The notes: generated from the sequence alone by a model not told the origin. A DNA stretch of 57,013 nucleotides from a virus (IMGVR_UViG_3300037400_003188:1-57013), one strand, 5' to 3'; shown: positions 48-30,301, counted from the stretch's first letter. Translations and numbers: made by a program.

Positions 48-704
48 GTTTATATAGGTCCTTTTTGAAAATATTGAAAATTTTTGGCCAAAATTTTTTT
101 GAGAGTAGGTACTACTTTTTGTAATGCGGGGGGGGGTCTAACAAAAAAATCAAAAAATTCCATGACGGATCACGCAGCAAACAGCCCGCCCCATATTGAT
201 ATAGGCGTAGCCAGGGAATACGTGGGGGAGATTACCGTAGGGGGGTGTCGGGTAGGTGGTACGTAGGTAGGCATAAGGTAGGGGGTTATGGGGGCTATCG
301 TAGGTAGTCCTACTTATCATACAAATCTATTCTTTGCCCATTTATTTGTGTTCTAAGCGCATTAAATTATTCAGCAGATACATTTACTATCTTTACAAAT
401 AAAATCGTTTAAAATCGAAATTATTTATATTAGTTTCATTATGGGTAATATATTATTAATAAACGAAGTTTATCAATGATATTTATATTACCTATAATGT
501 TTTGCTGATAAAATTGCGTTGCGTGTATGTATATGTCCTAAAATAAGAAAAATCTTCACATATAAAAATTTTGGGGCGATTTGCATTTTTTTCTCTAAAA
601 TTTTTATTATTGAAAAAATTATAGTACTTTTGCATCGTGTTTGATTGACAAGCACATTTGTTTTACCTAAAAAGTGTGGTCACACTATAAACGATTTTTG
701 CCTT

Positions 705-1280
705 ATGAACAAAACTATTCTTGCTGCAAGCGACATCATTAACTTTATGTCGAACATTAAGGGTTGCCGTCAAGGTGCAATTCACTACTTTTCTAAACTC
801 GCGTTCCCTAAAAAGAAATACGCGTATGCAGGTATCGTGGGCGAGGTAACCAAGTTCGTTGTTCGGCAGTGCCAATTCAATCGCGACTATGAAAATAGTG
901 TGAACAACCAATTAGTTCGCGAGGGCAAAGACGCAGCATTTGAGAGTGCTGGTCTAAAAGCGGGAGAGCGCTATATGCAAGGTCTTTACCGCAAGGTAAT
1001 CGAGAACACCATAACGGGGCAAAAGTATGTGGTGTGGTATCCTTATGAGGGTGCAAGTGTTAGCACGCAGTACTTTATTGACGGAGTTCCAGCGACTGCT
1101 GAACAAACTGCTATCATAGCAGAGTGGGAGAAAGCAAAGTACGCAAACGAAAAAATCGGCACGCAAGAAGCGGTCGGTGTTGAGAAAAAGGTGCTTTGGC
1201 GCTACACCAAGTTCGAGGGCATTACATACCTTGCGTGTGAGGGAGAGGTGCTAACTTGTGAAACCAAACCTGCCGCATAA
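705..1280 (+). CDS. Hypothetical phage protein (191 aa)
   Basis: Own promoter and terminator; ATG at 705 preferred over TTG at 645. Confidence 0.8.
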   Translation: MNKTILAASDIINFMSNIKGCRQGAIHYFSKLAFPKKKYAYAGIVGEVTKFVVRQCQFNRDYENSVNNQLVREGKDAAFESAGLKAGERYMQGLYRKVIENTITGQKYVVWYPYEGASVSTQYFIDGVPATAEQTAIIAEWEKAKYANEKIGTQEAVGVEKKVLWRYTKFEGITYLACEGEVLTCETKPAA

Positions 1281-1304
1281 CCAAGCGGTAGAGCACACCA
1301 AAGG

Positions 1305-1332
1305 ACAGACTGCAAAAGCGGTCTGTTTTTTT
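1305..1332 (+). terminator. Intrinsic terminator
   Basis: ACAGACTGC-AAAA-GCGGTCTGT then a T run. Confidence 0.8.
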
Positions 1333-1611
1333 GTACCTTTAACTTCACTATATGCCCTAAAATAAACTAATATTTGAATTATAAAAATTTTAGAGAGAAA
1401 TTATCAGTATAATTATGATATTTTTGCAAAATCTTTATTTTAAGAGGTTTTTATCTATTGGGTGGCACATTTATACTGTTTATGGATTTTCGTGTGTTAG
1501 AATTGAAATATGATGAAAAATTATTTTTATTCTCCAAAATTTTTATTATTGAGAATAATGTAGTATCTTTGCATTGTAATTAAAAAGATAACCTATAAAA
1601 CTTTTTAGAAT

Positions 1612-2007
1612 ATGAGCAACAAAGTACAAGAGTTTGCAGTAAAAAACGGAATTACAAACGTATTTCACTATGCAGCAGCAGAAGAAAAATGCGTGTTTGA
1701 GCGTCAGGCAGCAGAGTGTGGGTATGAGCGCAAAACTACTTTCTTCAGTGATTTAAGTATCGCAGAGTGGTATGGTGCAGATAGTGTACGCGACACATAC
1801 AAAAATGTTATGCGTTCGTGGGTAAAAGATGTTGTATATTTCACGGAATTTGTAATGTGTTTAAATTGGAAGATTTGGGAGCATAACGCACGCGGTAATG
1901 ACGAGTTGGCAAAAGTATATGATGAGTTGTGGCGCGAGGCTGATGAGTTGGCTTGCAACACATACAAAGGCGAAGACGCGGACTACTACTACAGCACGAC
2001 CGATTAA
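1612..2007 (+). CDS. Hypothetical protein
   Basis: ORF between promoter and terminator. Confidence 0.8.
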   Translation: MSNKVQEFAVKNGITNVFHYAAAEEKCVFERQAAECGYERKTTFFSDLSIAEWYGADSVRDTYKNVMRSWVKDVVYFTEFVMCLNWKIWEHNARGNDELAKVYDELWREADELACNTYKGEDADYYYSTTD

Positions 2008-2226
2008 GTGAGTAAATGTTATTTTGAATTCTTTCATAGTGGTAGCACTGGCTTGGGAAAGTCGGTGCTATTTTTTTGTGTTTCTCTATCAATATATGCT
2101 CTAAAATAGCAAAGTTTCTCGATAATAAAAATTTTTGGGAGTGATTTTGTTTTTATTCTCGAAAATTTTTATATATGGGAAAAATGTAGTACTTTTGCAT
2201 TGTAATTCAATAAAAAAATAGCAACT

Positions 2227-2631
2227 ATGGCAGTCAAAGTAAAACAAATCACAAACTACAAGGGTCGCTACTGCGCCGAACTTGAAAACGGGCTGTTCGT
2301 TTTAGAAAATGGGTCTATGGGTCTCCTGCTCTGCGAGAAAGTGGATGAGGGAATGAAAGTTATGGAAAGTAACATCTGCTGCGGAATGATGTCCAAGACG
2401 GAAGATGATTTTCGTTGGAACGTCGAGAACGCAAACTATATGACCGATATGTCTCCTTACGGAATGACGATTAAGGATGAGGATGATGACGAACAAGTCA
2501 AAATTTCCGTTACAATTACAAAAGGTCATATCGTGGAGGAACTGCGTAAACTTGCCGACGCGATAGAGGATAACGACTATGAAGAAATTCCTTATTATGA
2601 AACCTACCATTGTGCAGCAGAGTTTCACTAA
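2227..2631 (+). CDS. Hypothetical acidic protein
   Basis: ORF after promoter, ACAACTATG-type start context. Confidence 0.8.
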   Translation: MAVKVKQITNYKGRYCAELENGLFVLENGSMGLLLCEKVDEGMKVMESNICCGMMSKTEDDFRWNVENANYMTDMSPYGMTIKDEDDDEQVKISVTITKGHIVEELRKLADAIEDNDYEEIPYYETYHCAAEFH

Positions 2632-2647
2632 AAAAACTATTACTATT

Positions 2648-2872
2648 ATGGAAATCAAAGCAACTGACATTCGTGTTTGTGAGCAAGGTTTACTCACGCA
2701 CCAACCGATTACAATTTGTGAAAGCGGTGTTTTAATGAAATTCCAAAACGCAAAACCTCGTGACATAACTTTATATGTGGATGGCAATATGTGTATCATC
2801 AAAGAAAATGGTATTAAGACACACATTATAACCGCGCCTTTCAAAATTAAGATAGAGAAAGGTATCGAATAA
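2648..2872 (+). CDS. Hypothetical protein
   Basis: ATG at 2648 follows the previous stop; terminator downstream. Confidence 0.7.
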   Translation: MEIKATDIRVCEQGLLTHQPITICESGVLMKFQNAKPRDITLYVDGNMCIIKENGIKTHIITAPFKIKIEKGIE

Positions 2873-3089
2873 CGTTTATCTAAAAGCGAGATTGAAAGTG
2901 AGGGCAACTTGTTGTCCTCATTTTTTTATGCTTTAAAATTTTTATATGCAGCGGAAAAGTTTATTTTAGGGAATATAGTAAGACGATGAGTGATGATTTA
3001 TTTTTTATTCTCCAAAATTTTTATAATTCAAATAATTGTAGTACTTTTGCATTGTAATTAAAAGTTTAACAAATAAAACTATTAAGATT

Positions 3090-3512
3090 ATGGGTTACAC
3101 ACACTATTGGACATTTAAGAAGAAAGTAAAAGACATTACGAACGGCGAAAGTGGTTTCAAGTACGCCGTTGAGTTATTCAAACGCGGTTTGGAAATCGCC
3201 AGCGACAAACACAATCTCTACTATCCCGATTTGCTCGGTAACGGCGTGGGAGTGGATGAGCCGATTATTGAAGATGACAAACTTATCTTCAACGGTAAGC
3301 GACCCGATGACTATGAGACATTTGCAATCACGACCGAAAGCGAGGGTTTTGACTTTTGCAAGACTGCGAGGTGTCCGTATGATGTATTTGTCTGCCTTGC
3401 CCTGCTCTGCTTTGAGGATGTATTCGGAGACCAAATCGAGGTTAGCAGCGATGGCGATAGAAACAATGATGAGGGTTGGGTTGTTGCAAGGCAAATCTTC
3501 AACGAACTTTAA
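3090..3512 (+). CDS. Conserved phage hypothetical protein (MGYTHYW N-terminus)
   Basis: MGYTHYW start and C-terminal TARxPYD pattern recalled from an uncharacterised phage family. Confidence 0.8.
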   Translation: MGYTHYWTFKKKVKDITNGESGFKYAVELFKRGLEIASDKHNLYYPDLLGNGVGVDEPIIEDDKLIFNGKRPDDYETFAITTESEGFDFCKTARCPYDVFVCLALLCFEDVFGDQIEVSSDGDRNNDEGWVVARQIFNEL

Positions 3513-3696
3513 GAGTGAGGGCATTGCCCTCATTTTTTTTGTGCTTTGCAGGTAGTATATGGCCTAAAATACACGATTCCGTTAATTATAAAAATTTTAG
3601 GGGCGTAAAATTGGGGTACCATATTTTTATTCTCCAAAATTTTTATATTCCAAATAATTATAGTACTTTTGCATTGTAATTAAAAAACTAAACATT

Positions 3697-4074
3697 ATGG
3701 CAAGTGTAAAGAGTTACAAAGGACAACATTTTGAAAGCAGTTGTTGTCGCACCGAGCAATACGCAGAGTTTGAAAGAACCTGCAAGCGCGAACTCAAAAA
3801 GCAATGTGCAAAACTTGGTATCAACATACACAAGTTTTATCCAAACCACTTTGAGTGGTCGGCGGTATTGGAGAAAGGCGGCAAGTTCGTATATGTGTCC
3901 ATGAGTGATGTGCGCTATTGGGATTGGTACAACGATATTCTTATTCGCACAATGGCACACGCAGAAGATTGGCGAGGTGGCAGCAATAATAGTTGTTCGT
4001 TCGACAAGATTGGCGAAATGGCAAATAGATTATTAGGTTTTATTCCTTTGTCGGAATATTTGTCTAACGATTAA
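3697..4074 (+). CDS. Conserved hypothetical protein
   Basis: ORF after promoter; ILIRT...DWRGGSN motif. Confidence 0.8.
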   Translation: MASVKSYKGQHFESSCCRTEQYAEFERTCKRELKKQCAKLGINIHKFYPNHFEWSAVLEKGGKFVYVSMSDVRYWDWYNDILIRTMAHAEDWRGGSNNSCSFDKIGEMANRLLGFIPLSEYLSND

Positions 4075-4232
4075 AATACAAACATTATGTACGAAAGAGA
4101 ATACAATGAAAAAGATTTGAACGAAATCATAGACAAAGGTATGTATGATTGTTATTCGATGTGTGGTATTTGGTAAAAACTTTTTCTCTCCAAAATTTTT
4201 ATAAATGAAAAAATTGTTGTACCTTTGCAATG

Positions 4233-4761
4233 TCAAATTAAAAACGATAAGCATATGAAGAAGAGCTAGGTTTAGCATTAAGCACATGAGCCGTGCAACA
4301 TAAGGGATTGTCGCGGCATGAGTTTTAAAATTAGTTCTTTGGCTTGTTACGCATGAGATGGGCAAATAGATTACACCTCGCGGAGCCATTCAAAATTTAA
4401 GAATTCCAAATTTAAGCAGAATTATGAGGACAAATAAACCTCCGCCCGATTATTAAGGTGGCAACGGAATTAGGCAGTTATTAAATCGCATGAGAGGTTG
4501 GCGAATTATACTCCTTGCGGCTGCCGAGAGACTATAGAAGATTTTATATTAGAATTGTAACCGCCCAAAGGTAGGGCACAAAATAGTGCAAGTGTATGAA
4601 ACATAAGCGCATAAGAGCCGAGACGAAACATTAAGGCATAACAAATAACATTTAGATATAGGATTTAACATTAAAATAAAACGTAGCAAAATCGAGCCGT
4701 AATTCCGTAAGCGGTGAGCAAGTGCAGCGTTATGGGCACACTGACGAGTGTGCTCTTTTTT
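4233..4761 (+). ncRNA. Candidate large structured non-coding RNA (~520 nt), class unidentified
   Basis: Own promoter (TACCTTTG 4220-4227), terminator 4734-4761, no ORF of 60 aa or more, long-range helix 4464-4475/4696-4708, seven CATRAG repeats. Confidence 0.7.
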
Positions 4762-4906
4762 GGTCTATTTTGGTATTATATGCTCTAAAATAAGAAAATC
4801 CGTGAGATATAAAAATTTTAGAGTTGAAAAAAGATTTATCCCCCAAAATTTTTATATATGGAAGAAATGTAGTACTTTTGCATTGTGATTAAAAGAAAGG
4901 GACAAA

Positions 4907-5095
4907 ATGGAAGAGTTGGAATACAAAGGAGATAAAATCGTTAAGTATGGAGAAAACGATTATGTAGGTTTTTACCTTAATGCTGATGATGAGGTAAATA
5001 CTACCTATCATTGTAAGACATTAAAAGAAGCGCAAAAAGCGTTAGACAAGTATAATAAACTTGTGTCTATTATTAAAAATGAGAAAGGAGAATAA
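4907..5095 (+). CDS. Hypothetical protein
   Basis: ORF after promoter, AGAAAGGG upstream. Confidence 0.7.
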   Translation: MEELEYKGDKIVKYGENDYVGFYLNADDEVNTTYHCKTLKEAQKALDKYNKLVSIIKNEKGE

Positions 5096-5099
5096 CACT

Positions 5100-5495
5100 A
5101 TGAAACATTTAATTGAAAAGTTAATTCATCGTCTTTTGCGTAAGTGTCGCAAAAATCAGTTGCGTTATTTGTTTGCTCGTCTATTGGCGGAGATTGTTAA
5201 AGATAAAGAGAGTACAAATCACGTTCTTATATCAATCGCAAGTTACTTTATTAGGTATCACGGCGGAGAGAAATTTCAGTTCAATGACATTTTCGTAGTA
5301 GGTAACATTATCTATATCGACACATTGCGACCTGGCTATTGGATAGGCAAAGGTGGCTCGGAGGCAGATAGACTGCTTTTGGAGTGTAACTACAACACGG
5401 AAATGGAAAAAGTTGCCGATTATCAGTTGAGGTTCATTGAATTGTTAAATGACGCGCAGTCTGACATTGCAACGTATATTCACATAAATTCATAG
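5100..5495 (+). CDS. Putative type II KH-domain (uS3-like) RNA-binding protein
   Basis: IYIDTLRPGYWIGKGGSEADRL resembles the uS3 KH segment IHTARPGxVIGKKGxxIEKL with a GxxG loop. Confidence 0.55.
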   Translation: MKHLIEKLIHRLLRKCRKNQLRYLFARLLAEIVKDKESTNHVLISIASYFIRYHGGEKFQFNDIFVVGNIIYIDTLRPGYWIGKGGSEADRLLLECNYNTEMEKVADYQLRFIELLNDAQSDIATYIHINS

Positions 5496-5741
5496 CATAG
5501 TTATAAGGTTTTGGGTTATACAATTGTTGGTAGCATTGGCTTGTGAAAGTCGGTGCTATTTTTTTGTTCCAAAATTTTTATAATTGAAAGTTTTGTTTAT
5601 TTTAGGAGATATAGGAAGATGATTGCCCTCAAAACCGATAATTGTGTTTTTTATTCTCCAAAATTTTTATAAGTCAAATAATTGTTGTACTTTTGCAGTG
5701 TCAAACTTAAAAAACTAACCAAACAAAAGAAAGGAAACATT

Positions 5742-5846
5742 ATGGAAACTATTAAGAAAAACATTATTTCAATTGTCTTTGTAGGTACTATCATTATTTT
5801 TGTAACTCTTTGTATCACTCTCGCGAACTATTTCTTGTACGCATAA
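5742..5846 (+). CDS. Small membrane peptide (34 aa)
   Basis: After promoter and AGAAAGGA; one hydrophobic segment. Confidence 0.5.
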   Translation: METIKKNIISIVFVGTIIIFVTLCITLANYFLYA

Positions 5847-5866
5847 ATAAGATAGGAGAATAGGTT

Positions 5867-6028
5867 ATGAAAAAGAATAGTTTGAAAACACTTATAGAGT
5901 TTTTCGCTCTTTGTGGGGCAATAGCATTCTTTTGCGGACTTGCTGACCCGTGGGCATTCATTGCTTGTATGATATTCGGTTGTGCAGCCGCAGTAACTAA
6001 ATTGTTTTACAATATAGCAGAAGATTAA
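5867..6028 (+). CDS. Small membrane protein (53 aa)
   Basis: AGGAG upstream; two hydrophobic segments. Confidence 0.5.
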   Translation: MKKNSLKTLIEFFALCGAIAFFCGLADPWAFIACMIFGCAAAVTKLFYNIAED

Positions 6029-6032
6029 AGTT

Positions 6033-6227
6033 ATGGTAGATATAGAATTATTAAGTGTTGGCGACATTGTTAAGGTTGTCGATAGGAAGACGAGTAAGTT
6101 TGCATTCGGTCAAGTATCATTTAAGACAGATAACGGAGTTAGTGTCCGTCTTGGTTTTGACGAGAATTGCATTGTTACCTTATGTGATGATAGGTATTAC
6201 ATAGATTGTCTATTAGAAAAAGTATAA
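6033..6227 (+). CDS. Hypothetical protein
   Basis: Tightly packed ORF, terminator downstream. Confidence 0.65.
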   Translation: MVDIELLSVGDIVKVVDRKTSKFAFGQVSFKTDNGVSVRLGFDENCIVTLCDDRYYIDCLLEKV

Positions 6228-6443
6228 GGAAATAATAGGTTCATAGGGTTTAATGGGTTAATTGGATAGCATTGCGTTGGGAAACGCGGTGCTATTTTTT
6301 TTGTACCTTAAAATTTTTATATATGAAAAGTTTTCTTATTTTAGGACATATAGATATGGGTTATTTTTTTATTCCCAAAAATTTTTATAATTCAAATAAA
6401 AGCAGTACCTTTGTATCGTAATTCAAATAAACACTATAACATT

Positions 6444-7103
6444 ATGGAACAAATCAACAAACAAGAAATTCTCAATGCCGTAGCAAATTATTCACGCGCT
6501 GACATTAACTACGGAGAGTGTACAACAATGGGTGGCATTGTAAACGGACACCGCCAACATATTCACAAGTACTATTGGGTAGAAATTGGGGGCACACGCA
6601 TTCAAGACAATGGAGAGTTCAAAACAATGTTCTCATTCGTGCAAGCATTGCAAAAGCAGTTCGCTGCGATTGAAGAAGAATTGCGCAAAGAGAACGTGAT
6701 TTACGTTAAAGAGAAGAAAGACATTGTATGTGGCACCGACTACGTTTGGCATTGCGACAAATATGCAGAGTTGGAGTGTGTATTGGGACTTGTAAAAATA
6801 GTTCCGTGTGCAGAGTTCAAGGAGTTGCAAGAGTGGTTGAAAGAGAATGCAAACTTTGAGTTGGGTGTAACAGACTTGTACACTTGCGACATTTGCCAAA
6901 AGCGCAGTAGCAAATCGTATAGTAACTTTGAATACACCGCTACACATTTTAGTGTTTGCCAAAGATTGCTCAATGACTTAAAAGCGAAAGGTAAGGTTGT
7001 TGTGGAGATAAAGGAAGATGAAGAGATTGACAATGACCCCTATCGTTATGAGTATGAGCAGTATGGTTATAAGCGAGTGTACTTGTCAGCGACTGCTGCA
7101 TAG
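6444..7103 (+). CDS. Hypothetical protein
   Basis: ATG at 6444 after promoter; ends in TAG. Confidence 0.8.
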   Translation: MEQINKQEILNAVANYSRADINYGECTTMGGIVNGHRQHIHKYYWVEIGGTRIQDNGEFKTMFSFVQALQKQFAAIEEELRKENVIYVKEKKDIVCGTDYVWHCDKYAELECVLGLVKIVPCAEFKELQEWLKENANFELGVTDLYTCDICQKRSSKSYSNFEYTATHFSVCQRLLNDLKAKGKVVVEIKEDEEIDNDPYRYEYEQYGYKRVYLSATAA

Positions 7104-7204
7104 TATATATACTCAAATGAGTACCTATTTATTTCCCTAAAATTTTTATATGTGAAATAATTGTTGTACTTTTGTATCGTTAAACAATTAAAAACAATAA
7201 CACT

Positions 7205-7765
7205 ATGAACTATCAAGTAAAAACTATTGAGAATGGGCGCGGTATTTCGTTGCAATCGTATCAAAATCATTTGTCTTTGTATGAGAGTGATTTGAAAGAT
7301 TTAATCTTCTACAATGAAACGGAAGATACTTTCATCCGCAGAGTAGAGAGTTGGTTATGGGACATCGTTTGTGATGAGTATGACCGCGACAATTTCAAAT
7401 ACAATCAAAGCGACTTGGAGAAATCACTGCGAGTAGTATTCAAGAACTTGTATAAGGACTTTGAGCAGAGCGCAGAGTTTGAAACAAAGAAAGCAGAAAG
7501 ACTTGCCGAATTGGCAAAAGCAGACTTGGAGAAAAAAGTAAATCTTCGCACAATTACCGATTATGTTTGGAAAAAGCAAAACTTTGATAGAAAGTGTTAT
7601 GCTTGGAGTGCTTTCTCTTGCACAAAAGAATACAATGCCTATTGCAAAATGCAAGAATACATAAAAGAACACTTGGCAGAGTTTGCAGAGTTGGGCGAAA
7701 ACGAAAGAAACGAAAAAGGAAACGAGATATACTTGCAAAAGTTGAAAGAGATTAGGGGGTGGTAA
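7205..7765 (+). CDS. Hypothetical protein
   Basis: ORF between promoter and terminator. Confidence 0.8.
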   Translation: MNYQVKTIENGRGISLQSYQNHLSLYESDLKDLIFYNETEDTFIRRVESWLWDIVCDEYDRDNFKYNQSDLEKSLRVVFKNLYKDFEQSAEFETKKAERLAELAKADLEKKVNLRTITDYVWKKQNFDRKCYAWSAFSCTKEYNAYCKMQEYIKEHLAEFAELGENERNEKGNEIYLQKLKEIRGW

Positions 7766-7976
7766 GAATAGTATAGTGGCTATGGTAGCACTGGGTTGAA
7801 AAACTCGGTGCTATTTTTTTTTATACTTAAAATTTTTATAACTGAAAACTTTTTTTATTTTAGGGCATATGATCTTTTTTCAGTTACAAAAGATCTTTTT
7901 GTTTTTTATTTCCCTAAAATTTTTATGTTCTAAATAATTGTAGTACTTTTGCATTGTAATTAAAATAATAACAACT

Positions 7977-8231
7977 ATGGTATCCTATTACATTACAATT
8001 GCTTTTTATAGCGAGCCGAATTATCGAGGAAATTGCAGTATTTATTACCTCAAAGGTATAAAAGGTAACAAAATCTCTTATGGCGGCACAATGTACAAGA
8101 AATTGTATCTACAAAAAAGTGCGGCATTAAAAGCCGCTAAAAAAATAAAAAATGCTTTTACCACCGCAAAAGTTGAGGTAAATGAAATCATTCCGATAAA
8201 CGGAGTATTTAATACAATTGTAATTCAATAA
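7977..8231 (+). CDS. Hypothetical basic protein, paralog of 11382..11603
   Basis: Shared FYSEPN..GN...GNKISYGG. Confidence 0.75.
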   Translation: MVSYYITIAFYSEPNYRGNCSIYYLKGIKGNKISYGGTMYKKLYLQKSAALKAAKKIKNAFTTAKVEVNEIIPINGVFNTIVIQ

Positions 8232-8533
8232 AAAAAGGAGAATAAGAAGAAACTGCAAGCGCGAATTAACGAACTCAAAGGAGAGGGATACGTTGAGCGC
8301 AGAGGTTTAATAGTTGTTCATAGGTTTAGGTTTAAGGGTTGGTAGCACATAGTCGTGAGGATTAGGTGCTACTTTTTTTATTTTTTTTTTGCTTTGCGGG
8401 TACTATATGCCCTAAAATAAACTAATTCTTGGAACATAAAAATTTTAGAGTCAAAAAAAATTATTCCCAAAAATTTTTATATATCAAATAATTATAGTAC
8501 TTTTGCATTGTGAAACTTAAAAACAAGACAACT

Positions 8534-8806: not shown

Positions 8807-8807
8807 A

Positions 8808-8969: not shown

Positions 8970-8984
8970 AATAAAGGAACAACT

Positions 8985-9197: not shown

Positions 9198-9217
9198 CAA
9201 AAGAAAGGAGAAATAAT

Positions 9218-9532: not shown

Positions 9533-9731
9533 GTTTTCATAGTGTTTAGTGGGTGCTGGTTGCAGAAATGCAGCCAGCATTTTTTATGCTCTAAAATTTT
9601 TATAGCCGAAGTTTTTTCTTATTTTAGGACATATAGTTCCAGAAATGTGATTTGTATTTTTTATTCCCCAAAATTTTTATATGTTAAAGAAATGTAGTAC
9701 TTTTGTATCGTAATTAAAAAACTACACAACT

Positions 9732-10010
9732 ATGGCAAATAAAATTTATCTTTGGAGTGCGCACGAAAAAAATAATTGTCTAAAACATTCTTATTGTTAT
9801 GCGCGCAAGGAGTACACAACCGAGCAGGTTGCAAGCATACTGAAAGAAAGTGATAAATTCAAAGATTGCACAGAACCGATTGTGGTTCGTCCAATTGCTG
9901 AACACGAAATTGCAGGTGTATGCGCCTATCAGCGTGTAATAAACTTGCAGCCGAGCGAAGACGAAATGTGGCTTGTGCGTAAATTGATTAACAAAAGTAA
10001 AAATTTATAA
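9732..10010 (+). CDS. Hypothetical protein
   Basis: ORF after promoter. Confidence 0.7.
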   Translation: MANKIYLWSAHEKNNCLKHSYCYARKEYTTEQVASILKESDKFKDCTEPIVVRPIAEHEIAGVCAYQRVINLQPSEDEMWLVRKLINKSKNL

Positions 10011-11081: not shown

Positions 11082-11381
11082 ATCAAAAATTCGGCAGTAA
11101 GTAAAATTATTGCCGTTTTTTTGTGCCTTTATAGAACTATATACCATAAAATAAACAATTCCGTGAATAATAAAAATTTTGGAGTATAATTTTGTTTTTT
11201 TTCCCTAAAATTTGTATAATTCAATTTTTTTCTTTTATTTGGCCATATATATATGCGCATACACTTTTTCAAATGAATAATGGTATGATGATTACATTTT
11301 TTTGAACGAATTATTCCCTAAAATTTTTATATATCAAATCTTTTTAGTATCTTTGCAGCGTAATTCAAAACAAATAAAATT

Positions 11382-12655: not shown

Positions 12656-12865
12656 TGTTTAATGTTTAATAGTTAGTGGTGGCACTGGGTGAAAACTCAG
12701 TGCTATTTTTTTGTTCTCTAAAATTTTTATAACTGAAGATTTTTCTTATTTTAGGACATATAGTAGGCTGTAAACTTTTTTTCTCCAAAATTTTTATAAT
12801 CCAAAGAAAAGCAGTATCTTTGCAGCAGATTTGATTAACCAACTAAAATAGAAAGGAACACTATT

Positions 12866-14537: not shown

Positions 14538-14742
14538 AGGTTGTTAATAATGTTAGTGGTGCGACTGGTTATAACGACTGGTCGCATTTTTTTATTTTCT
14601 GCGGGTATTATATGCCCTAAAATAACATTTCCAGCAACATATAAAAATTTTAGGGGCGTAAATAACTTTTTTTCTCCAAAATTTTTATATACCAAATAAT
14701 TGTAGTACTTTTGCATTGTCAAATATTAAAACACATAACACT

Positions 14743-15324: not shown

Positions 15325-15451
15325 AAACAAGTTGTTAATAATGCGGCGACTGGCTATTCGGCTGGTCGCTTTTTTATTCCCAAAAATTTTTATATGTCAA
15401 ATAAAAGCAGTACCTTTGCACCAGAATTAACAATTAAAAAATATCAACACT

Positions 15452-16345: not shown

Positions 16346-16564
16346 AGTGTTTCCTTTCATAGATGGTTTAGTCGGTGCTGGTGCAGGAATGTGCCAGCAT
16401 TTTTTTTGCCTGCTGGTATCCTATATGTCCTAAAATAAACTAATTATTCAATAATAAAAATTTTAGGGAAGCAAATAACTTTTTTTCTCCAAAATTTTTA
16501 TATTCAAATTATTTGTCGTACCTTTGTACCAGATTTGATTAACAACATTAAATACCTATTTACT

Positions 16565-18562: not shown

Positions 18563-18806
18563 GTTGTGGGTTGTTAATAATGTGGCGACTGGCTATTCGG
18601 CTGGTCGCTTTTTTTATGCCTTAAAATTTTTATAATTGCCAGACTTTTTTATTTTAGGGCATATAGTACGGACTTCACACTATATTCTCCGTAGCCTAAT
18701 ATGCACTTTTATTCCCTAAAATTTTTATATATGATTTTTTTATAGTATCTTTGCAGCAGATTTAAACGACAAACATTTATTAACCATTAAAATAGGAGAT
18801 ATAACT

Positions 18807-20782: not shown

Positions 20783-20793
20783 AAAAGTTTAAT

Positions 20794-21327: not shown

Positions 21328-21527
21328 TTGTAGTTAGTAAATGTTTAGTGGTGGCACTGGCTTGTGAAAGTCGGTGCTATTTTTTTAATCTCGATTTCCT
21401 ATATGCCCAAAAATAAACTTTTCTGCGACATATAAAAATTTTAAGGATATTATTTTTCTTTCTCCAAAATTTTTATAACTCAAATAAATATAGTATCTTT
21501 GCACCAGAAATTAAAAACAATACGACT

Positions 21528-21770: not shown

Positions 21771-21790
21771 CAACTAAAAATACTAACATC

Positions 21791-21973: not shown

Positions 21974-22059
21974 CGTTTATTTCCCTAAAATTTTTATATA
22001 CGGAATAAATGTAGTATCTTTGTATCGTAATTCATTAACAACTAAAAACAACACACATT

Positions 22060-23091: not shown

Positions 23092-23145
23092 GAATGTATA
23101 TACTCAATTGAGTACCTAATTACAAAAGAAAGGAGAATAAGAATT

Positions 23146-23322
23146 ATGACAGAACTTGAATTAGCAAAATTTCGCGACGACACTTACAATCGTCTTGTAG
23201 AAACATTCGATATGAGCCACGAACAAGCGAATTTCGTGATTGCTCTTGAACAGCATACACATTCAACACTTGGGGCTGCCCTGTATGAAATTAACGATTT
23301 TTTGGATCATTGCGGGCTATAA
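23146..23322 (+). CDS. Small protein (58 aa)
   Basis: AGAAAGGAG upstream. Confidence 0.55.
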   Translation: MTELELAKFRDDTYNRLVETFDMSHEQANFVIALEQHTHSTLGAALYEINDFLDHCGL

Positions 23323-23443
23323 TATAATGGGTTTCGATTTAGCCGAATAGTAAACAATATTTAATAAAAAATAAAAAAATTATGGGTTTCGATTGACTTT
23401 TTACACCTTTCATTTATATTTATATATAGAAAGGATTAGTAAA

Positions 23444-24154
23444 ATGAAAAAGAAATTTATAATTTACAAATACACATCACCGAGTGGCGGCGTATACATT
23501 GGGCAAACCTGTGCTACTAAACTATCATATAGACAGGGCATAGACGGGTCGAGATATTTACAAGTAGATAAAACAACTGGTGAATATTTACAACCAGCAA
23601 TTGCAAGAGCAATTATTAAATACGGCTTCGATAATTTCAAAAAAGAGATATTATTTGAGGGTTTATCGTCTGAAGAGGCTGATGAAAAAGAAATCGAACT
23701 AATTAAATATTATAAAGAGAATGGCGAATGCTATAATGTAACCTCTGGCGGAAAGGGTATTCCAGGCGTTAATTATACTAAGATAAAACAATATACATTA
23801 TCTGGCAACTTTGTAAAAAACTGGGATAGTGTAGAAGAAGCTGCGGTATCATTAGGTAATAAACAATATAGTAGTAATATAAGTGCTTGCTGTGCGGGTA
23901 AAAAACATAGGGCATATGGCTTTATTTGGAGATACGCTGATGACAATTCTATTGTAGAGCCGCTTAGCCCATATAGGGAAAGAGTGTGCCAATTAACTAA
24001 AGACGGAAAATATGTAGCAACATATAATTCAGTTAAATATGCTAGTAAAATGACTGGTATTAAAGAAAGAACAATTAGTAATGCACTTGAAGGAAGGTGG
24101 GCTAAAACTGCTGGCGGATATATATGGAGATTTGAACGTTTTATAAAAAAATAG
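23444..24154 (+). CDS. Free-standing GIY-YIG homing endonuclease with two NUMOD1-type repeats
   Basis: IIYKYTSPSGGVYIGQT, E..LI and YN motifs; repeated QY/QL..G.YV....S...A...G.IWR units. Confidence 0.85.
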   Translation: MKKKFIIYKYTSPSGGVYIGQTCATKLSYRQGIDGSRYLQVDKTTGEYLQPAIARAIIKYGFDNFKKEILFEGLSSEEADEKEIELIKYYKENGECYNVTSGGKGIPGVNYTKIKQYTLSGNFVKNWDSVEEAAVSLGNKQYSSNISACCAGKKHRAYGFIWRYADDNSIVEPLSPYRERVCQLTKDGKYVATYNSVKYASKMTGIKERTISNALEGRWAKTAGGYIWRFERFIKK

Positions 24155-24276
24155 TATTTTTATGCCCTAAAATTTTTATAATCCAAAAAATTGTTGTACT
24201 TTTGCATTGTCATTTAAAAAATAACTTTATTAACAATTTAAAAATGAGGGCGCATTGAAAACAATGCGATACAACT

Positions 24277-25041
24277 ATCGGATTAGATGTTTATTTCGAG
24301 AAAGTAAAACCGAGTAAGGGTGTTAACGTAAATTCAGTTGAGGAACTTTCTGCTGACCGCACTGCGCAGCACAAGAAAGCATTCAACAAAGTGGTTAACC
24401 AATACGTTAAGCGTATTAAACAGGCAATCGCTGACGATAATTTCGAGGAGCGTAATAAGGCTATCGCAGAGTTACGCGAATATATTAAGGAGACAATGGT
24501 CTACGATTGGTATTGGAAGGCTGTCTCTGAAGAGAAATCCAATAAGGAGATTTTGGACGAGGTTAAGCACCTGAAGAAGATGTTCTACCCGCACGAAGAT
24601 GTGTATTTCCGCAAAGCAAACTTTGTGTATCGCTTCTTCCACCCCTATCTTGTAGACGAGGTGTGCATCGTAACCAAAGATATGGTAAACGACCTTTTGG
24701 AACGCTGTGACGAGGTTATCGCCGCTGCTAAAGAGGACGGAGTTATCGACGAGAACGGAGAAATTGACAAGCGATATTTCTATTGTCGAAATTTCTATGA
24801 CCTAACGAAAGAGGAACAAGAGAAAGAAAGAAAGCGTGTGGCTAAGGAAACCGCGAAAATGCCACGAGTATGGGCTGAAACGGCTGAAAATCAACTCCCT
24901 ACACAAGACGGCTTCTTCTTCGGCAGCACAGAGTACGATGTCTACTACTTGGAAGATATTCTGTCCTGCAAACACCAATTCGAGAAACTGCTTGCCGATT
25001 GGAAAAACAACGAGGTAGTGTACAACATAATGAGTTGGTAA
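24277..25041 (+). CDS. MGLD...YxRK-family hypothetical protein with apparent ATC start
   Basis: Frame is open from ATC-GGA-TTA-GAT (GLDVYF) and contains YFRKANFV; the ORF track starts only at GTG 24391. Confidence 0.7.
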   Translation: MGLDVYFEKVKPSKGVNVNSVEELSADRTAQHKKAFNKVVNQYVKRIKQAIADDNFEERNKAIAELREYIKETMVYDWYWKAVSEEKSNKEILDEVKHLKKMFYPHEDVYFRKANFVYRFFHPYLVDEVCIVTKDMVNDLLERCDEVIAAAKEDGVIDENGEIDKRYFYCRNFYDLTKEEQEKERKRVAKETAKMPRVWAETAENQLPTQDGFFFGSTEYDVYYLEDILSCKHQFEKLLADWKNNEVVYNIMSW

Positions 25042-25155
25042 CCAATGAGTTGAGAGTGTGGTAGTGAAACAATCTACCACATTCTCTCCCTAAAATTTTT
25101 ATATGTCAAAAATTATTTGTATATTTGCAGTCGGATTTAAAAAGAAAGGAAATAT

Positions 25156-25449
25156 ATGACTTACGAAAAGTATCTTAAACTATCGACATTATTTATGGTG
25201 CTCCTGCCAATTGGATTAATATTGGTGCAATCATTTCTATCAATGTTGTTGGTGACACAAGTCATTGTCCCGTGGATTTCGAGTTTTGACGAAGCCAGTA
25301 TGTTGGGGGCATTCAATTTCGGTATGATATACTGCATATTACTTATTGCTGTGTGCACAGGTATTGATTATGTTGTTTTGGGCCTATACAGAAAACACGT
25401 GGAAAAAAAAGAGTTTAAATTACTTAATAAAGAACTAGGGGTGATATGA
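25156..25449 (+). CDS. Membrane protein
   Basis: Two long hydrophobic segments; after promoter and AGAAAGGA. Confidence 0.7.
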   Translation: MTYEKYLKLSTLFMVLLPIGLILVQSFLSMLLVTQVIVPWISSFDEASMLGAFNFGMIYCILLIAVCTGIDYVVLGLYRKHVEKKEFKLLNKELGVI

Positions 25450-25721
25450 TGTATTGCATTGGGTTAGGTGAGCCAGATAAATCGCCAAGATATATTAGTA
25501 CGTGTGATGACCATTGGTATACAACTACCAGTGTGAAACTGTTTCAGTTCACACAGAACCAGGTGAATACTATCATTACACAGTTGCGCAGTCACTTTCA
25601 GAAGAAGATATTTGTGCTTGACCAGAATGGCGAAGTAATTTTTAATACTACAAAACAAAAAAATATTCCAGCAAAGGCGGAGTCAAAAACAACTGGTTTG
25701 GTAATTAAAATACGTGTGTAA
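25446..25721 (+). CDS. Hypothetical protein
   Basis: ATGA overlap with the previous gene. Confidence 0.65.
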   Translation: MMYCIGLGEPDKSPRYISTCDDHWYTTTSVKLFQFTQNQVNTIITQLRSHFQKKIFVLDQNGEVIFNTTKQKNIPAKAESKTTGLVIKIRV

Positions 25722-25771
25722 TAAAAATATGTATACTCGATTGAGTACCTAATTAGAAGAAAGAATATAAT

Positions 25772-26674
25772 ATGTTTGAAATAGAAAGAGGAAAACTGTC
25801 CAAGACAAAGATTAAAGAAATACTGTTTAAGGAACTCGAAGACAATGGGTTCCATGTAACTAATGTGGAAGTTGGTAACGGTTACTTCCTGTTCGACCTT
25901 GGGCGGAACTCTGTAGTTCACTTCAAAATTAAGGAAATCCCTTACTGGAAGTTCGGATTCTGGATTCGAAAGGATAACGACAAGAAAGAATATACTATCG
26001 AGTTCTTCGGTGAAAAGATTGACTGGATAGATAAGTTCAAACCGTCTCGCTGTACTATCTCTTCTTCAAAAGATGACGAAGATAAAATTTATTACCGTGC
26101 ACCATTCGTCTGGACAAAGGATAGCCAGTGCCATTATTCAGCACCTTATATGGCTGTATTCCACGAAATGAATACACTTCAACGCCTGAAGAAGAACCGT
26201 CGTATTGCAGAGTACGGGCTGTCTGATACAAGCCGTAGTTTCCTGAAGTGGCTCTGGGATGAAATCTGGTTCTATGACATTGAGAAACCTGTCACAGACT
26301 TCTATGAGGCTCACATCCAGGGACTGTTGTATAAAGCAGCACTGTGGCTCGTAGGCCTGAAGTATCGTAAGTACGTTATTACTCGTCCTGTGATTGACCT
26401 GACAGAGCCAGGATGGATGACTTCACCTCGTTACGAGACAGGCGTTGAATACCGTCCAGGACTTCCTGAAGAAACTGTGAAGAAAATCTGGTATAAGATT
26501 GAAGACAGTATACTTGCGAAGTTCATGCGTGGTAACTCACACTTCAACCAGTATTCTGACAGTGAAGCACGGCGTGGCTTCTACTATCCAGAGTACTACG
26601 AGGAAAAACGTAAAAAGGAAGAGGCGGAGCGTGCTGCTCGACTCGAAAAAATGAAACAGAAAAATAATAAATGA
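25772..26674 (+). CDS. Hypothetical protein (300 aa)
   Basis: Long ORF. Confidence 0.85.
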   Translation: MFEIERGKLSKTKIKEILFKELEDNGFHVTNVEVGNGYFLFDLGRNSVVHFKIKEIPYWKFGFWIRKDNDKKEYTIEFFGEKIDWIDKFKPSRCTISSSKDDEDKIYYRAPFVWTKDSQCHYSAPYMAVFHEMNTLQRLKKNRRIAEYGLSDTSRSFLKWLWDEIWFYDIEKPVTDFYEAHIQGLLYKAALWLVGLKYRKYVITRPVIDLTEPGWMTSPRYETGVEYRPGLPEETVKKIWYKIEDSILAKFMRGNSHFNQYSDSEARRGFYYPEYYEEKRKKEEAERAARLEKMKQKNNK

Positions 26675-26865
26675 TAATTATGGAAAATCCGAATGACATT
26701 AAAAATATAGATCTTTCACAATTAACAGATACTGAACTATCATATTTACATTTGCATGCAAATTCTTTTTATGGAAATCCAGAAAAATATATTAATACGC
26801 CTGAATATGGAGAAATATATCGAAAAATTATAGCAGAAATGAAAAAACGTTCTAATATGAATTAA
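26671..26865 (+). CDS. Hypothetical protein
   Basis: Packed ORF. Confidence 0.55.
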   Translation: MIIMENPNDIKNIDLSQLTDTELSYLHLHANSFYGNPEKYINTPEYGEIYRKIIAEMKKRSNMN

Positions 26866-26878
26866 AACAAAATTGATT

Positions 26879-27739
26879 ATGGAAAAGAATAAAACTACTA
26901 AATCTGACATTTATAAAATAGACCCCAGGAACATTGTTGTAACAGACGGTTTTAACTCACGCTGTAATTTCGGCGACCTGGATGAATTGGCTCGACAGAT
27001 TAAAGAACAGGGTGTATTGAACCCTATTACTGTTCAGGTCTTTAAGGATGAGAACGGTGAAGAGAAGTATCGCCTGATTGACGGTGAACGTCGTTACAGG
27101 GCTGTTATGAAACTTATCGACGAGGGACACGAGATATCCAGGGTTCCAGCACTGTTTGTTTCTAAGAGTTGTTCTGAAGAGGAACTTCTTATCCAACAGG
27201 CAATGCGTAATGAGGGTAAGAACTTCAATGAATATGAGTGGGGTATCCTGGCTCGTAAACTTATGGAGCGCTGTGGACTCACGAAGTCTGAAGTAGCCAA
27301 GAAACTCGGTAAGAACCCAGGAATGGTTTCATACTGGTTACAGTTACTGGAAATGAAGCCAGAACTTCAGGCTCTGGTACGTGACGGTGTGGTGACCGCT
27401 GTTGATGTACGTAAAATTCTCCAGGCTAATAATAAAAATGAGGAGATAGCGTATCGTGAGATTGTAAAGGCTCAGAAGAAGGCAGAGACTCGTGGCGATA
27501 AGAAAATCACCCTGAAGGACTTGGATATTAACAGTCGTACAATTTCCTTTAAGGACAGTAAGGAGATTAAGTTTGGTCTTCGTCGTCTCTTCAGTTATAT
27601 TGACAAATATAATAATCCAGACGGTGAGTTCGAGGCTGTTATTGACCTCAGAAATGTCCTGGATAAATTAAATAAGGATATGACTATCACCGAAATTCTG
27701 GATGATATTAAGAAATCTGCTTACGCAAAGGCGGAGTAG
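26879..27739 (+). CDS. parB: ParB/Srx-family protein with central HTH
   Basis: LARQIKEQGVLNPI and LIDGERRYRA (GxxR CTPase motif), followed by EVAKKLGKNPGMVS HTH. Confidence 0.85.
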   Translation: MEKNKTTKSDIYKIDPRNIVVTDGFNSRCNFGDLDELARQIKEQGVLNPITVQVFKDENGEEKYRLIDGERRYRAVMKLIDEGHEISRVPALFVSKSCSEEELLIQQAMRNEGKNFNEYEWGILARKLMERCGLTKSEVAKKLGKNPGMVSYWLQLLEMKPELQALVRDGVVTAVDVRKILQANNKNEEIAYREIVKAQKKAETRGDKKITLKDLDINSRTISFKDSKEIKFGLRRLFSYIDKYNNPDGEFEAVIDLRNVLDKLNKDMTITEILDDIKKSAYAKAE

Positions 27740-27959
27740 TACATAGTGTTAGGTTTTTAGTTGGGTGGTACCTGCTCGTGAGAGTCGGTACCATTTTTTA
27801 TCAGTTGTTCATCTATATGTCCTAAAATAAACTTTTTTCTCACATATAAAAATTTTAAGGGATATTTTTTACTATTTTGCATTTTTTCTCCCCAAAATTT
27901 TTATATGTCATTTTTTTTTACTACCTTTGCATCAGTTTTTTTAAAAATATAATAACACT

Positions 27960-28610
27960 ATGAGTAAAATTACATGTAAAGTAAATGACGATTTAACCAT
28001 TGCATTGGTCAACGTACAAAAAACTTATGGACATGACGATAGTCTGCCGTTTCAAGCAGATGTCCACGTGAAGAGTAGGAAACTAGGTTTTCCTAAGTTG
28101 ACTTATGTTGGATATGCTCATAACGACGGTTGGGGCGGAGATACTGTTATCGAGAGTGCACTACATCAGTACATCCTTAATACTATAAATGGTATATTAA
28201 TGAATGGTTATCAAATTCATATCAAGAGGCCTGAAATCAGTTGGGCTGTACGTTTAGACTATCTGGTTTCTATTATGGCGGAGCGTTCTATATACGGGCA
28301 CAAAACAAACATGGATATCATGGACATGGAGGACTGCGAAAAAGTAGAAACGCTTTTATATCCTAAGGCGGATGGACAAAAGTATACATACGTAGCATGT
28401 GTCATCCAAACAGCGCTCGATACTAAGGAGGTAACAATTGCATTAGCATCAAGAGACAAACTGGGTATTAAAAAGAATAGCCCTGAAGACAAAACAATAT
28501 TTGCATATTGTGACGGCGGATATGAACAATTTATAGAGATGGTCGCAAAGGATCCTGTATTCACTTCCGCTGAAGACTTTAATATTAAATCGATTTTAAA
28601 ACTTATTTAA
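27960..28610 (+). CDS. Hypothetical protein (HNDGWGG motif)
   Basis: ORF after promoter. Confidence 0.8.
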   Translation: MSKITCKVNDDLTIALVNVQKTYGHDDSLPFQADVHVKSRKLGFPKLTYVGYAHNDGWGGDTVIESALHQYILNTINGILMNGYQIHIKRPEISWAVRLDYLVSIMAERSIYGHKTNMDIMDMEDCEKVETLLYPKADGQKYTYVACVIQTALDTKEVTIALASRDKLGIKKNSPEDKTIFAYCDGGYEQFIEMVAKDPVFTSAEDFNIKSILKLI

Positions 28611-28634
28611 TAACTAATAAAATTTATTGAAATT

Positions 28635-29258
28635 ATGAAAAAGAGACTTTTTATCTTAGTGGCATTATTTGCCGTAACGTTCACATCTATTTACGCCGAA
28701 ACTTATTAGGTCCGTCGTAATCCAGGTTCTGAAGAGTATTTCCTCGATCGTAAGATTCGAGAGGCTAAAGAAAACAGATTAAATAAACCAAATAGTTATG
28801 CTGGCTTAATTACTAGGTTTGGGTATGGATTCAATTATGACGCCTTTACTTATGGAGCCTCCCTTCTTTATCACTTCGACGGGGCCCTGGGTGTCACTGT
28901 AGGATTCGACGGCTATTACATTCCGAATATGTATACAGAGTTATCGGATGGAACCTTGGTAAAGATCACAGATTATAAATTCCCACTGTGGAACCTCCGT
29001 GCTGGCCTGATGCTCGGTAAATACTTCGCATTCGGTGGACTTTGTGGAAAGTGGATGATTGATAACCCAAATGTCATCAATATGAAGGAGAATGCATGGT
29101 TCGTATCTAATAAGGAAAGCAAAGTAATGTATGGAGGATGGATCACATTCCTGCTACCTATCGGAAAGCACTTCGGATTCAATCTTGACTTCGCCGTCAC
29201 CAATAAAACGGGCTTCAATGTCGGTGCTGGAATAAATGTAACAATTCCTGTAAAATAA
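28635..29258 (+). pseudogene. Outer-membrane beta-barrel protein gene interrupted by in-frame TAG (28707-28709)
   Basis: Signal peptide MKKRLFILVALFAVTFTSIYA; open frame resumes after TAG with alternating Gly/aromatic strands ending FNVGAGINVTIPVK. Confidence 0.7.
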
Positions 29259-29431
29259 TTACAAAAAACAGGTATTATTGATCATATCAAAACTATTTAT
29301 TAACAAAAGGATATAATACAAATATAGACTCGATTGAGTACCTATTTCAAAAAAAGGCCCCGAAAATTTGTATATATCAAATAAAAGTTGTATCTTTGTA
29401 TTGGATTTATATATTAATTTTTTCATGATTG

Positions 29432-29533
29432 GCTTCGGGTGGTGAGTAATTCTCAAACAAGTCTCTTAGACAGCATATTTATTTGCGGGGGGAGAAGCAA
29501 TTAACATCACGGGAATCAACCCCACCCCAGGCC
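29432..29533 (+). ncRNA. Candidate small structured RNA (~100 nt)
   Basis: After promoter; GGCTTCGGGTGG pairs with CCACCCCAGGCC; internal hairpins; T run follows. Confidence 0.5.
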
Positions 29534-29567
29534 TCTTTTTTTAACACGCTTAATTTAAATTAATTAT

Positions 29568-29753
29568 ATGGTATATTGGTATTTATTTGCAACAATCCTA
29601 GCAGCGGTAGCATGCGTATTATGTACTAGTCAAGCATTAACTAGATGGACCGAAGGTGAAGACATGAACTGGTACCTGTTGATCTTTGGCATCCTTAATG
29701 GAATCTTATGTGTCATCGATTGTTGTTTCCTTATTAATGCACTTACACTGTAA
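29568..29753 (+). CDS. Small membrane protein
   Basis: Two hydrophobic helices. Confidence 0.65.
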   Translation: MVYWYLFATILAAVACVLCTSQALTRWTEGEDMNWYLLIFGILNGILCVIDCCFLINALTL

Positions 29754-30100
29754 TGAACCAGGATATCGTTACGTACCAGCATCTATTCACCAAAGATCTG
29801 AAGGATGCGTTTGATAATATAAAGGATGATTCTGTGAAGAGAATATATGCCGTAATGGAATTCAATACTGAGTTTGAATTAGGCCTTTCCTGTAAACCTT
29901 ATGAATGGGTTAACTCAAATACCTTCGTAACTCTTGATGGAGTAGAGGCGTTGCATAAGTATGTATTTAATACTAACCCAATGGTTGAGATTATTGACGC
30001 TAGTTCATTCGACGAACTAAATAAGAAGATGATCAAAATGGCTAATAACTTTAAAACCCCAGAATATGTAAATACTAAAATAGAATCGAGGTTCTATTGA
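29753..30100 (+). CDS. Hypothetical protein
   Basis: TAATG overlap; terminator downstream. Confidence 0.75.
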   Translation: MNQDIVTYQHLFTKDLKDAFDNIKDDSVKRIYAVMEFNTEFELGLSCKPYEWVNSNTFVTLDGVEALHKYVFNTNPMVEIIDASSFDELNKKMIKMANNFKTPEYVNTKIESRFY

Positions 30101-30301
30101 TTCTATTAATTAATTTTATCATATATTAAATACTTATTTGGAAGCACTGGCTCGTGAGAGTAGGTGCTTTTTTGTTATGTAATCCACGTAAAAAACATAA
30201 CATTATATCCCTAAAATTTTTATATATCAAATATTTTTTTATTTTTGGCCATATATAAATATACATATACTCAATTGAGTACCTATTTCATATACAGGCA
30301 T

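Follow-up and report, generated by a model that had tools for sequence, protein, structure and literature searches.

What purpose is served by a short element that recurs, in either orientation, between the cassettes of a viral gene array? This question is raised by the virus sequence IMGVR_UViG_3300037400_003188, in which a 45-bp element is found between the promoter–gene–terminator cassettes of a 30-kb early-gene array. The window analysed here (57,013 nucleotides) covers the start of a linear IMG/VR virus record of 121,233 bp, whose completeness CheckV estimates at about 32%. The original prediction had proposed that the element is either a recombination site for cassette capture, shuffling or inversion, or an orientation-independent binding site for a phage activator or DNA-organizing protein. 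The features described below instead lead us to predict, with a probability of roughly 55%, that the element (called P2) binds polymerase and probably initiates transcription, serving as a second host-type promoter or as a docking site.

Sequence and placement of the 45-bp element

A pattern search that allowed up to three mismatches identified 17 copies of the element in the contig and none in 100 shuffled sequences, while a weight matrix, or the same pattern with up to six mismatches, recovered exactly 20. The matrix scores of these copies range from 43 to 61, and nothing scores between 15 and 43. Eleven copies reside on the + strand (F type, reading TATATG...TTTTAG) and nine on the − strand (R type). 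All copies fall inside positions 530–30255, the other 91 kb having none, and they occupy 19 junctions, one of which is shared by copies 11138 and 11205. The spacer between the two arms is 14 nt in 20 of 20 window copies and in 49 of 49 copies from relatives. Copy 530–574 differs from the reverse complement of copy 12718–12762 at only 3 of 45 positions. The right arm is an exact reverse complement of the upstream box of the cassette promoter (called P1), and this 12-mer is confined to P1 and the element throughout the contig, just as the left arm is confined to the element. Thus, the descriptive part of the original prediction proved accurate, including its estimates of about 29 units with the same promoter and about 19 junctions carrying the element, its 11 forward and nine reverse copies, its 42/45 match, its spacer length and its assignment of one half of the element to the −33 region of the promoter.

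The P1 family comprises 29 copies of 50 nt on the + strand (587–29402), each composed of a T-run, a −33 box AAAATTTTTATA, a fixed spacer, a −7 box TAyyTTTG and then CA. Every cassette has its own P1, and ten further copies are located elsewhere in the contig. The P1 pattern is also found, as a single occurrence in each, in 83 stretches of bacterial genomes, mostly from Bacteroidota, where a rough chance estimate gives a few matches. The P1 box is best read as a host-type signal, because the number of bacterial stretches far exceeds this estimate.

The promoter-like character of the element becomes apparent when it is read in reverse, from its CTAAAATTTTTATA end towards its CATATA end. In this direction, the 20 copies agree in consensus with the 29 P1 copies for about 30 nt, after which the two families have different 3′ halves. 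Common to both are the T-rich lead-in, a triplet rich in C, the box AAAATTTTTATA and two spacer positions with partial conservation. Beyond this part, P1 runs on into TAyyTTTG and CA, and the element into TTATTTTAGG, followed by a single free base and CATATA, a conserved putative start region. The gap between TTT[T/G] and TA measures 19 nt in the element and 20 nt in P1. Promoters recognized by the Bacteroidota sigma-A factor (sigma-ABfr) carry TTTG near −33 and TAnnTTTG near −7, as summarized in PMC7366714, and the −7-like box of the element is located at the spacing expected for motifs at these two positions. Within the window, the −33 sequence of the element is TTTT, always 19 nt before TA, and the −7-like box is TATTTTAG, which has one mismatch to TAnnTTTG, in 16 of the 20 copies. 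The commonest natural variants, TATTTTTG or TATATTTG, match TAnnTTTG perfectly and are represented by window copies 21400 and 30211 and by the related loci L016, L011 and L021 (relatives are cited by L number hereafter).

These relatives were collected by a single element-pattern scan of metagenome contigs, which returned 20 loci that are all homologous to the array (70–95% identity) and carry the element in both orientations. Three more distant arrays were reached through homologues of the open reading frame (ORF) at 6444–7103, and their proteins are about 47% (L121 and L122) or about 43% (L124) identical to those of the window array. Other searches were less productive. DNA searches of GenBank phages in near and distant modes gave nothing useful, the ParB-like protein of the array retrieved only remote ParB homologues from unrelated phages, a locus search based on this protein gave none, and scans of IMG/VR gave one chance match for the element and none for the strict promoter.

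In L121 and L122, 13 of the 21 element copies read TTT[T/G]-N19-TATATTTG, which corresponds to the canonical form of a Bacteroidota host promoter, and seven copies carry TTTATTTG. The −33 sequence in these arrays is TTTG or TTTT and is always 19 nt before TA. Orientations are mixed (11 F and 10 R), and an R-type element precedes the homologue of ORF 6444–7103 in both arrays, as one does in the window. Furthermore, P1 and the element show parallel differences in their −33 boxes among three lineages. The respective P1 and element boxes are TTTTTATA and TATAAAAA in the window lineage, TTTGTATA and TATACAAA, each mixed with the T form, in L121 and L122, and TTTGCATAT and ATATGCAAA in L124.

Two other observations concern the distant arrays. 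All six R-type copies of L122 have TTTG at −33 and TTTATTTG at −7, and its forward copies mostly have TTTT with either −7 form, which hints that the two orientations are tuned differently. In L124, where the first element is always forward, the linkers between it and P1 carry an extra repeat (TTTTGYAAAGTGTAGTTAGCAAAA, about 24 nt) that faces either way, for example at 7753–7780 and 9850–9880.

When orthologous copies are compared, both boxes of the element diverge by 3–5% per site, the spacer by 16% and the free position by 44%. At the level of sequence comparison, both boxes are thereby shown to be under purifying selection, because they change so much less than the spacer and the free base. 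Conservation at the non-A/T positions G6, C8 and C9 is base-specific.

The placement of the element is as regular as its anatomy. There are 19 intrinsic terminators in the array (1285–30173, + strand), each with a hairpin of −11.9 to −21.1 kcal/mol followed by a T-run, and the element follows 18 of them. The exception is the terminator ending at 15375, where L019 has an element. Among the 29 P1 junctions, 17 carry both a terminator and an element, ten carry neither and two carry only one of them (p = 6e-6); the link of the element to terminators is tighter than its link to P1. R-type copies begin 3–5 nt past the terminator T-run (37 nt for copy 30211). This geometry is the same as that of P1 with its own T-run, and the terminator T-run therefore replaces the T-rich lead-in of P1. 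F-type copies begin 13–16 nt past the T-run.

In both orientations, the element is separated from the P1 box by distances that form classes near 58, 69, 80, 91 and 102 nt, with linkers that are mutually unrelated. Relative to uniform lengths, this clustering gives p = 0.004 for the R-type copies alone. The same classes recur in L121 and L122 when period and phase are preset from the first data set (p about 1e-4). A flip of the element displaces its −33 box by 33 nt, which equals three steps of about 11 nt, and the two −33 boxes therefore keep one register in either orientation of the element. A dimer site centred between the 7-nt inverted arms was also considered and rejected, given that F and R copies share distance classes when measured from the element edge or the −33 box, and not when measured from the arm centre.

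Orientation and breakpoints among relatives

A repeated site with short inverted arms that is found in both orientations, in an array whose cassette content and order differ among relatives, would be an attractive candidate for an integron-like or invertase-like recombination site acting in cassette capture, excision or inversion. However, when orthologous junctions are compared between the window and related metagenome contigs, orientation is kept in 34 of 35 cases. These comparisons cover 18 of the 19 window junctions, and a 36th was left out because it had been mis-assigned within the double junction 11138/11205. The only change of orientation separates L014 from window copy 3556, where the same two genes flank the junction. 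In L014, the whole terminator-to-P1 module has been replaced by a module of the 2933 type, linker included, rather than the element having been flipped in place.

The ends of homologous blocks point in the same direction. P1 contains 22 of 88 such ends, relative to 8% expected (p about 1e-6), whereas the element contains four of 88, relative to 3.9% expected, and three of these four represent one event. Relatives differ by whole cassettes, and this variation in content and order proceeds in the manner of the promoter-early stem-loop (PeSL) cassettes discussed below, through the repeated promoters. R-type copies have been gained or lost at window positions 15373, 16897 and 11205, each time between direct repeats of the shared box or T-run, which carries the signature of homologous exchange between repeats.

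Nor does the element resemble a folded recombination substrate. As single-stranded DNA it folds with −1.3 to −3.3 kcal/mol, and five of six strands fold no better than shuffled sequences (the sixth, from copy 12718, has z = −2.0). The original prediction noted that the window holds no recombinase; in the entire 121-kb record there is no match to the tyrosine (PF00589) or serine (PF00239) recombinase families, an absence that means little at about 32% completeness, as such an enzyme could be encoded outside the fragment. Of three observations that were expected to argue against recombination, orientation proved to be fixed and breakpoints are not enriched at the element, whereas cassette order varies. 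Each cassette also has its own promoter. The recombination-site reading is largely refuted, and we consider it very improbable.

A predicted second promoter and its rivals

The part of the original prediction that envisaged an orientation-independent binding site tied to the promoter box was right in its direction, as the site is promoter-like and is probably bound by RNA polymerase or by a factor specific to the −33 box. Of these, the host sigma-A holoenzyme of RNA polymerase is the most likely binder, a putative assignment made because the element shares with P1 the lead-in, the −33 box and spacer positions and also has its own −7-like box. If so, P2 would have its 5′ half in common with P1 and be set directly after terminators in composite junctions of the PeSL kind.

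In the nine − strand copies the promoter reading points with the genes, in tandem to P1, and in the eleven + strand copies it points back at the preceding terminator, divergent from P1. Accordingly oriented P2 copies would yield tandem transcripts (R copies) or antisense transcripts (F copies), and P2 might act with P1 across a fixed helix face. P2 may serve to insulate against read-through, to control the upstream cassette by antisense transcription, or to couple with P1 through supercoiling or polymerase. We prefer the first of these, whereby P2 would be a post-terminator docking site for polymerase that insulates each cassette from read-through. A more elaborate version is proposed only tentatively: a docking site able to function either way round would capture or block polymerase after each terminator, and its helical phase with P1 would pass the polymerase to the next cassette, or else the backward copies would start programmed antisense transcription that shuts early cassettes off.

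Several observations weigh against a second promoter. A conserved A in place of a critical consensus T in 16 of the 20 window copies suggests that recognition is weak or altered. No gene has the element as its only promoter, and each R-type copy with a gene ahead of it also has a P1. The backward copies make up over half of the total, and a search for genes or conserved ORFs under their control found none. All 12 copies in L124 point backwards, and this array lacks a canonical −7 box at promoter spacing. Moreover, the parallel change of the −33 boxes could have arisen from gene conversion among repeats rather than from a common binder, and the distance classes and their statistics may derive in part from common ancestry of the junctions. 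Searches of Bacteroidales genomes with up to three mismatches found the element in 0 of 301 and an equal-length P1 pattern in 1 of 121, numbers that are too low to separate the two.

The main rival explanation is an auxiliary operator, in which a lineage-specific regulator from phage or host binds both the element and the −33 box of P1, bridges one helix face and switches the early cassettes together. This would account for an arm that is the exact P1 box and is confined to P1 and the element, for parallel box changes in three lineages at positions beyond the four bases that the host sigma factor is known to need, and for a distance to P1 that is quantized in steps of about 11 nt in both orientations. 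It also accommodates an element that is always accessory to P1 and never a lone promoter, and the retention by L124 of the box arrangement without a promoter-like −7 box. Left unexplained by an operator, however, are the −7-type second arm at promoter spacing, which is canonical in L121 and L122, the match to P1 in spacer positions and T-run, and copy 30211, which stands without any P1. In addition, no candidate regulator was identified, and nothing ties the ParB-like protein, encoded by the only DNA-binding gene recognized in the array, to the site. We therefore regard the operator as possible but doubtful.

Less probable is an architectural role, in which the element would shape the junction whichever way it faces, either as intrinsically bent A/T-tract DNA or as a site for a nucleoid-type (HU/IHF-like) protein. 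Sites of the IHF type work in either orientation, and the element, being long (45 bp), asymmetric and present either way round, is like them in this respect; its A4T5 and A-tract blocks are set at whole or half helical turns and its spacing to P1 is phased. Yet the conservation of G6, C8 and C9 and the match to the −7 consensus exceed the needs of bending, and neither a sigma factor nor an HU/IHF-type protein was found in the contig, an absence that again means little in so incomplete a record. This role is unlikely. So too is the idea that the elements are functionless halves of promoters, which were copied and swept along as repeated junctions underwent unequal homologous recombination. In favour of such a process are the 30 nt shared with P1, R-type copies that come and go between direct repeats of the shared box, and the existence of repeat families among terminators and promoters as well. 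But both boxes, including the one that is not in P1, are three to six times better conserved than the spacer, whose length is constant in 69 copies; the arrangement is kept in arrays whose proteins are only 43–47% identical; and simple unequal exchange cannot produce inverted copies.

The array and its counterparts in other viruses

The record has a G+C content of 35% and fits a large Bacteroidota phage from gut or rumen, and its promoters have the TAnnTTTG −7 box of that group. About 60 small + strand ORFs are packed into its first 30 kb, and the coding strand switches near 30.3 kb. A family was found for three of 22 scanned array proteins (ParB-like, NUMOD1 homing-endonuclease-like and DUF3293), and the other 19, which match no Pfam or PHROG family, represent small orphan genes. 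The NUMOD1-domain ORF (23444–24154) is located inside the array, and 1.7 kb around it is replaced by 0.6 kb in L019, as expected for a mobile endonuclease gene.

Matrix matches to P1 start at 587, 1526, 2152, 3004, 3626, 4182, 4835, 5650, 6368, 7129, 7906, 8460, 9660, 11310, 12777, 13556, 14668, 15373, 16481, 16919, 17783, 18708, 19091, 21456, 21977, 24159, 25082, 27884 and 29353. The T-runs of the terminators end at 1332, 2077, 2927, 3540, 4761, 5565, 6302, 7822, 8379, 9585, 11122, 12712, 14593, 15375, 16407, 18615, 21386, 27799 and 30173. The terminators form repeat families, one of which is the GGTAGCACTGG...GTGCTAT hairpin (2041, 5529, 6264, 7784, 12678, 21350, 30143 and others). The whole junction is therefore modular, with modules exchanged between cassettes.

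For each copy of the element, we give the matrix score, the distance past the terminator T-run, the distance from the element to the P1 box and the relatives in which orientation is the same. The forward series begins at 530–574, in the first unit, which has no upstream terminator (58.7; 67 nt from element start to P1 box; L009), and continues with 1349–1393 (60.8; 16 nt; 187 nt, a long outlier; L009 and L014) and 2093–2137, the most diverged forward copy (43.6; 15 nt; 69 nt; L009, L010 and L014). Copy 3556–3600 (53.3; 15 nt; 80 nt) is F type in L009 and is replaced by the R-type module in L014, and 4777–4821 (59.2; 15 nt; 68 nt; L009) follows an ORF-free cassette at 4232–4755. Copy 8404–8448 (58.1; 13 nt; 66 nt) is identical in L005 and L013. 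Farther along the array are 14609–14653 (49.5; 15 nt; 69 nt; L004 and L019), 16422–16466 (57.2; 14 nt; 69 nt; L016 and L019), 21400–21444, with its perfect TAnnTTTG (53.8; 13 nt; 66 nt; L002, L003 and L019), and 27814–27858, located after the ParB-like gene (54.4; 14 nt; 80 nt; L007 and L019).

The reverse series includes 2933–2977 (48.7; 5 nt; 81 nt; L009), 5569–5613 (55.9; 3 nt; 91 nt; L011 and L021) and 6308–6352, upstream of ORF 6444–7103 (55.2; 5 nt; 70 nt; L006 and L009). For copy 7827–7871 (54.4; 4 nt) the distance to the P1 box is 89 nt, and at the same junction of L017 it is 69 nt, which amounts to two 10–11-nt steps fewer. Copy 9591–9635 (55.7; 5 nt; 79 nt) is R type in L005, L013 and L018, where the linkers are unrelated and measure 80, 80 and 111 nt. 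Copies 12718–12762 (60.1; 5 nt; 69 nt; L013, L015 and L018) and 18621–18665 (56.8; 5 nt; L002 and L019) precede their P1 boxes at ordinary and exceptional spacing, respectively, the 97 nt of the latter being outside the distance series. The last unit carries 30211–30255 (54.8; L012), a copy with a perfect TAnnTTTG that follows the last terminator of the array (30142–30173) and has no P1 downstream.

The double junction combines both types. Its first copy, 11138–11182 (F type; 50.1; 15 nt past the T-run; also F in L013, L015 and L018), is 69 nt from the box of the second, 11205–11249, which stands in the place of P1. This second copy is R type, degenerate (43.2) and absent from L013, L015 and L018. 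It occupies the exact P1 position of these relatives, and the extra segment of 115 nt is flanked by direct repeats of the shared box.

Other features of the DNA accompany the array. A second junction motif consists of an ATATATA-like prefix, the palindrome TACTC-N4-GAGTA and then CCTAATT, with 14-nt cores at 7110, 13519, 17557, 23101, 25734 and 30268. It is situated between genes that have no terminator, in some relatives directly after the CATATA end of R-type elements, and also in L124, and it may act either as a site bound by a dimer or, in RNA, as a hairpin that signals processing or stability. A non-coding, G-rich stretch (about 130–315) marks the left border of the array; it contains numerous runs of G together with GGTAGG repeats and is prone to G-quadruplex formation. 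It recurs in L009 and, nearly identically, at 1850–2030 of L124, although L124 proteins are so diverged; it is likely to be a functional DNA or RNA element, because it is conserved far better than the genes. An Rfam scan of positions 1–31000 matched no family. Finally, another promoter class with TTGTATATTTG and without the AAAATTTTTATA box precedes several − strand genes and units of the transfer RNA region (31–57 kb and the rest of the contig).

The closest known counterparts are the PeSL cassettes of T4-type phages (Arbiol et al. 2010, PMC2839356; Comeau et al. 2014, PMC4122927). As in the window, each PeSL junction unites the hairpin of a terminator with an A/T-rich stretch and a strong early promoter of host type. 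Such junctions recur among the small orphan genes of a plastic region, and insertions, deletions and replacements between relatives end at the repeated promoter, as they do here in P1. In the window, by contrast, the promoter is of the Bacteroidota type, the large phage that carries it belongs to a different lineage, and the junction has an extra 45-bp promoter-like unit of fixed anatomy facing either way, a unit that does not appear in the accessible portions of PMC2839356 and PMC4122927. The array is thus a PeSL-like system in a new phage lineage, and, as far as checked against that partial description, the orientation-variable second promoter unit with phased spacing is new.

Other comparisons are less complete. 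Read in reverse, the element resembles a Bacteroidota sigma-A promoter (TTT[T/G], 19 nt, TAnnTT[A/T]G), perfectly so in many L121 and L122 copies and in window copies 21400 and 30211, but in most window copies A replaces the third T of TTTG, and about half of the copies point away from any gene. Bacteroides thetaiotaomicron has a second promoter motif, PM2, which is nearly palindromic (PMC7366714). The SPO1 host-takeover module is a dense set of small early genes with strong host-type promoters and terminators, and sites for TF1, an HU/IHF-like protein of that phage, are present at its early promoters. The array shares the dense early-gene block, the strong host-type promoters and terminators and, putatively, extra protein-binding sites at early promoters. 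However, no TF1-like (HU-family) gene was found here, and the sequence logic of the element is that of a promoter rather than of a TF1 site.

Integron attC sites are similar in being repeated, with inverted arms, at cassette boundaries, whereas the element has no stable fold, is of mixed orientation, accompanies cassettes with their own P1 and is not where breakpoints fall, and no integrase was found in the 121 kb. An invertible DNA switch is unlike the element in view of the orientations kept at orthologous junctions, where the exception was a replaced junction module. Repetitive extragenic palindromes and bacterial interspersed mosaic elements (REP/BIME) occupy a similar position after terminators, but the element lacks a stable hairpin. 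In halovirus HF2, intergenic repeats carry promoters (PMC8707807), which provides a precedent for repeated intergenic viral units that prove to be promoters, although this is an archaeal virus with another promoter type, and the abstract of PMC8707807 describes no paired second unit of variable orientation. A literature search on promoters of Lak-type phages yielded nothing relevant.

These findings remove an attractive integron-like reading of this phage. Large phages are known to keep and shuffle small accessory genes in arrays of terminator–promoter cassettes, and what is added here is a second promoter-type unit of strict anatomy, placed after nearly every terminator, facing either way and in fixed helical register with P1. 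If the more elaborate docking-site reading of P2 is correct, the early-gene arrays of very large Bacteroidota phages would possess a conserved insulator or antisense layer. Backward copies that fire would be conserved antisense promoters directed against the phage's own early genes, and copies that only bind polymerase would be natural insulators. Either way, the junctions would represent compact, portable expression parts for Bacteroidota, where few are characterized.

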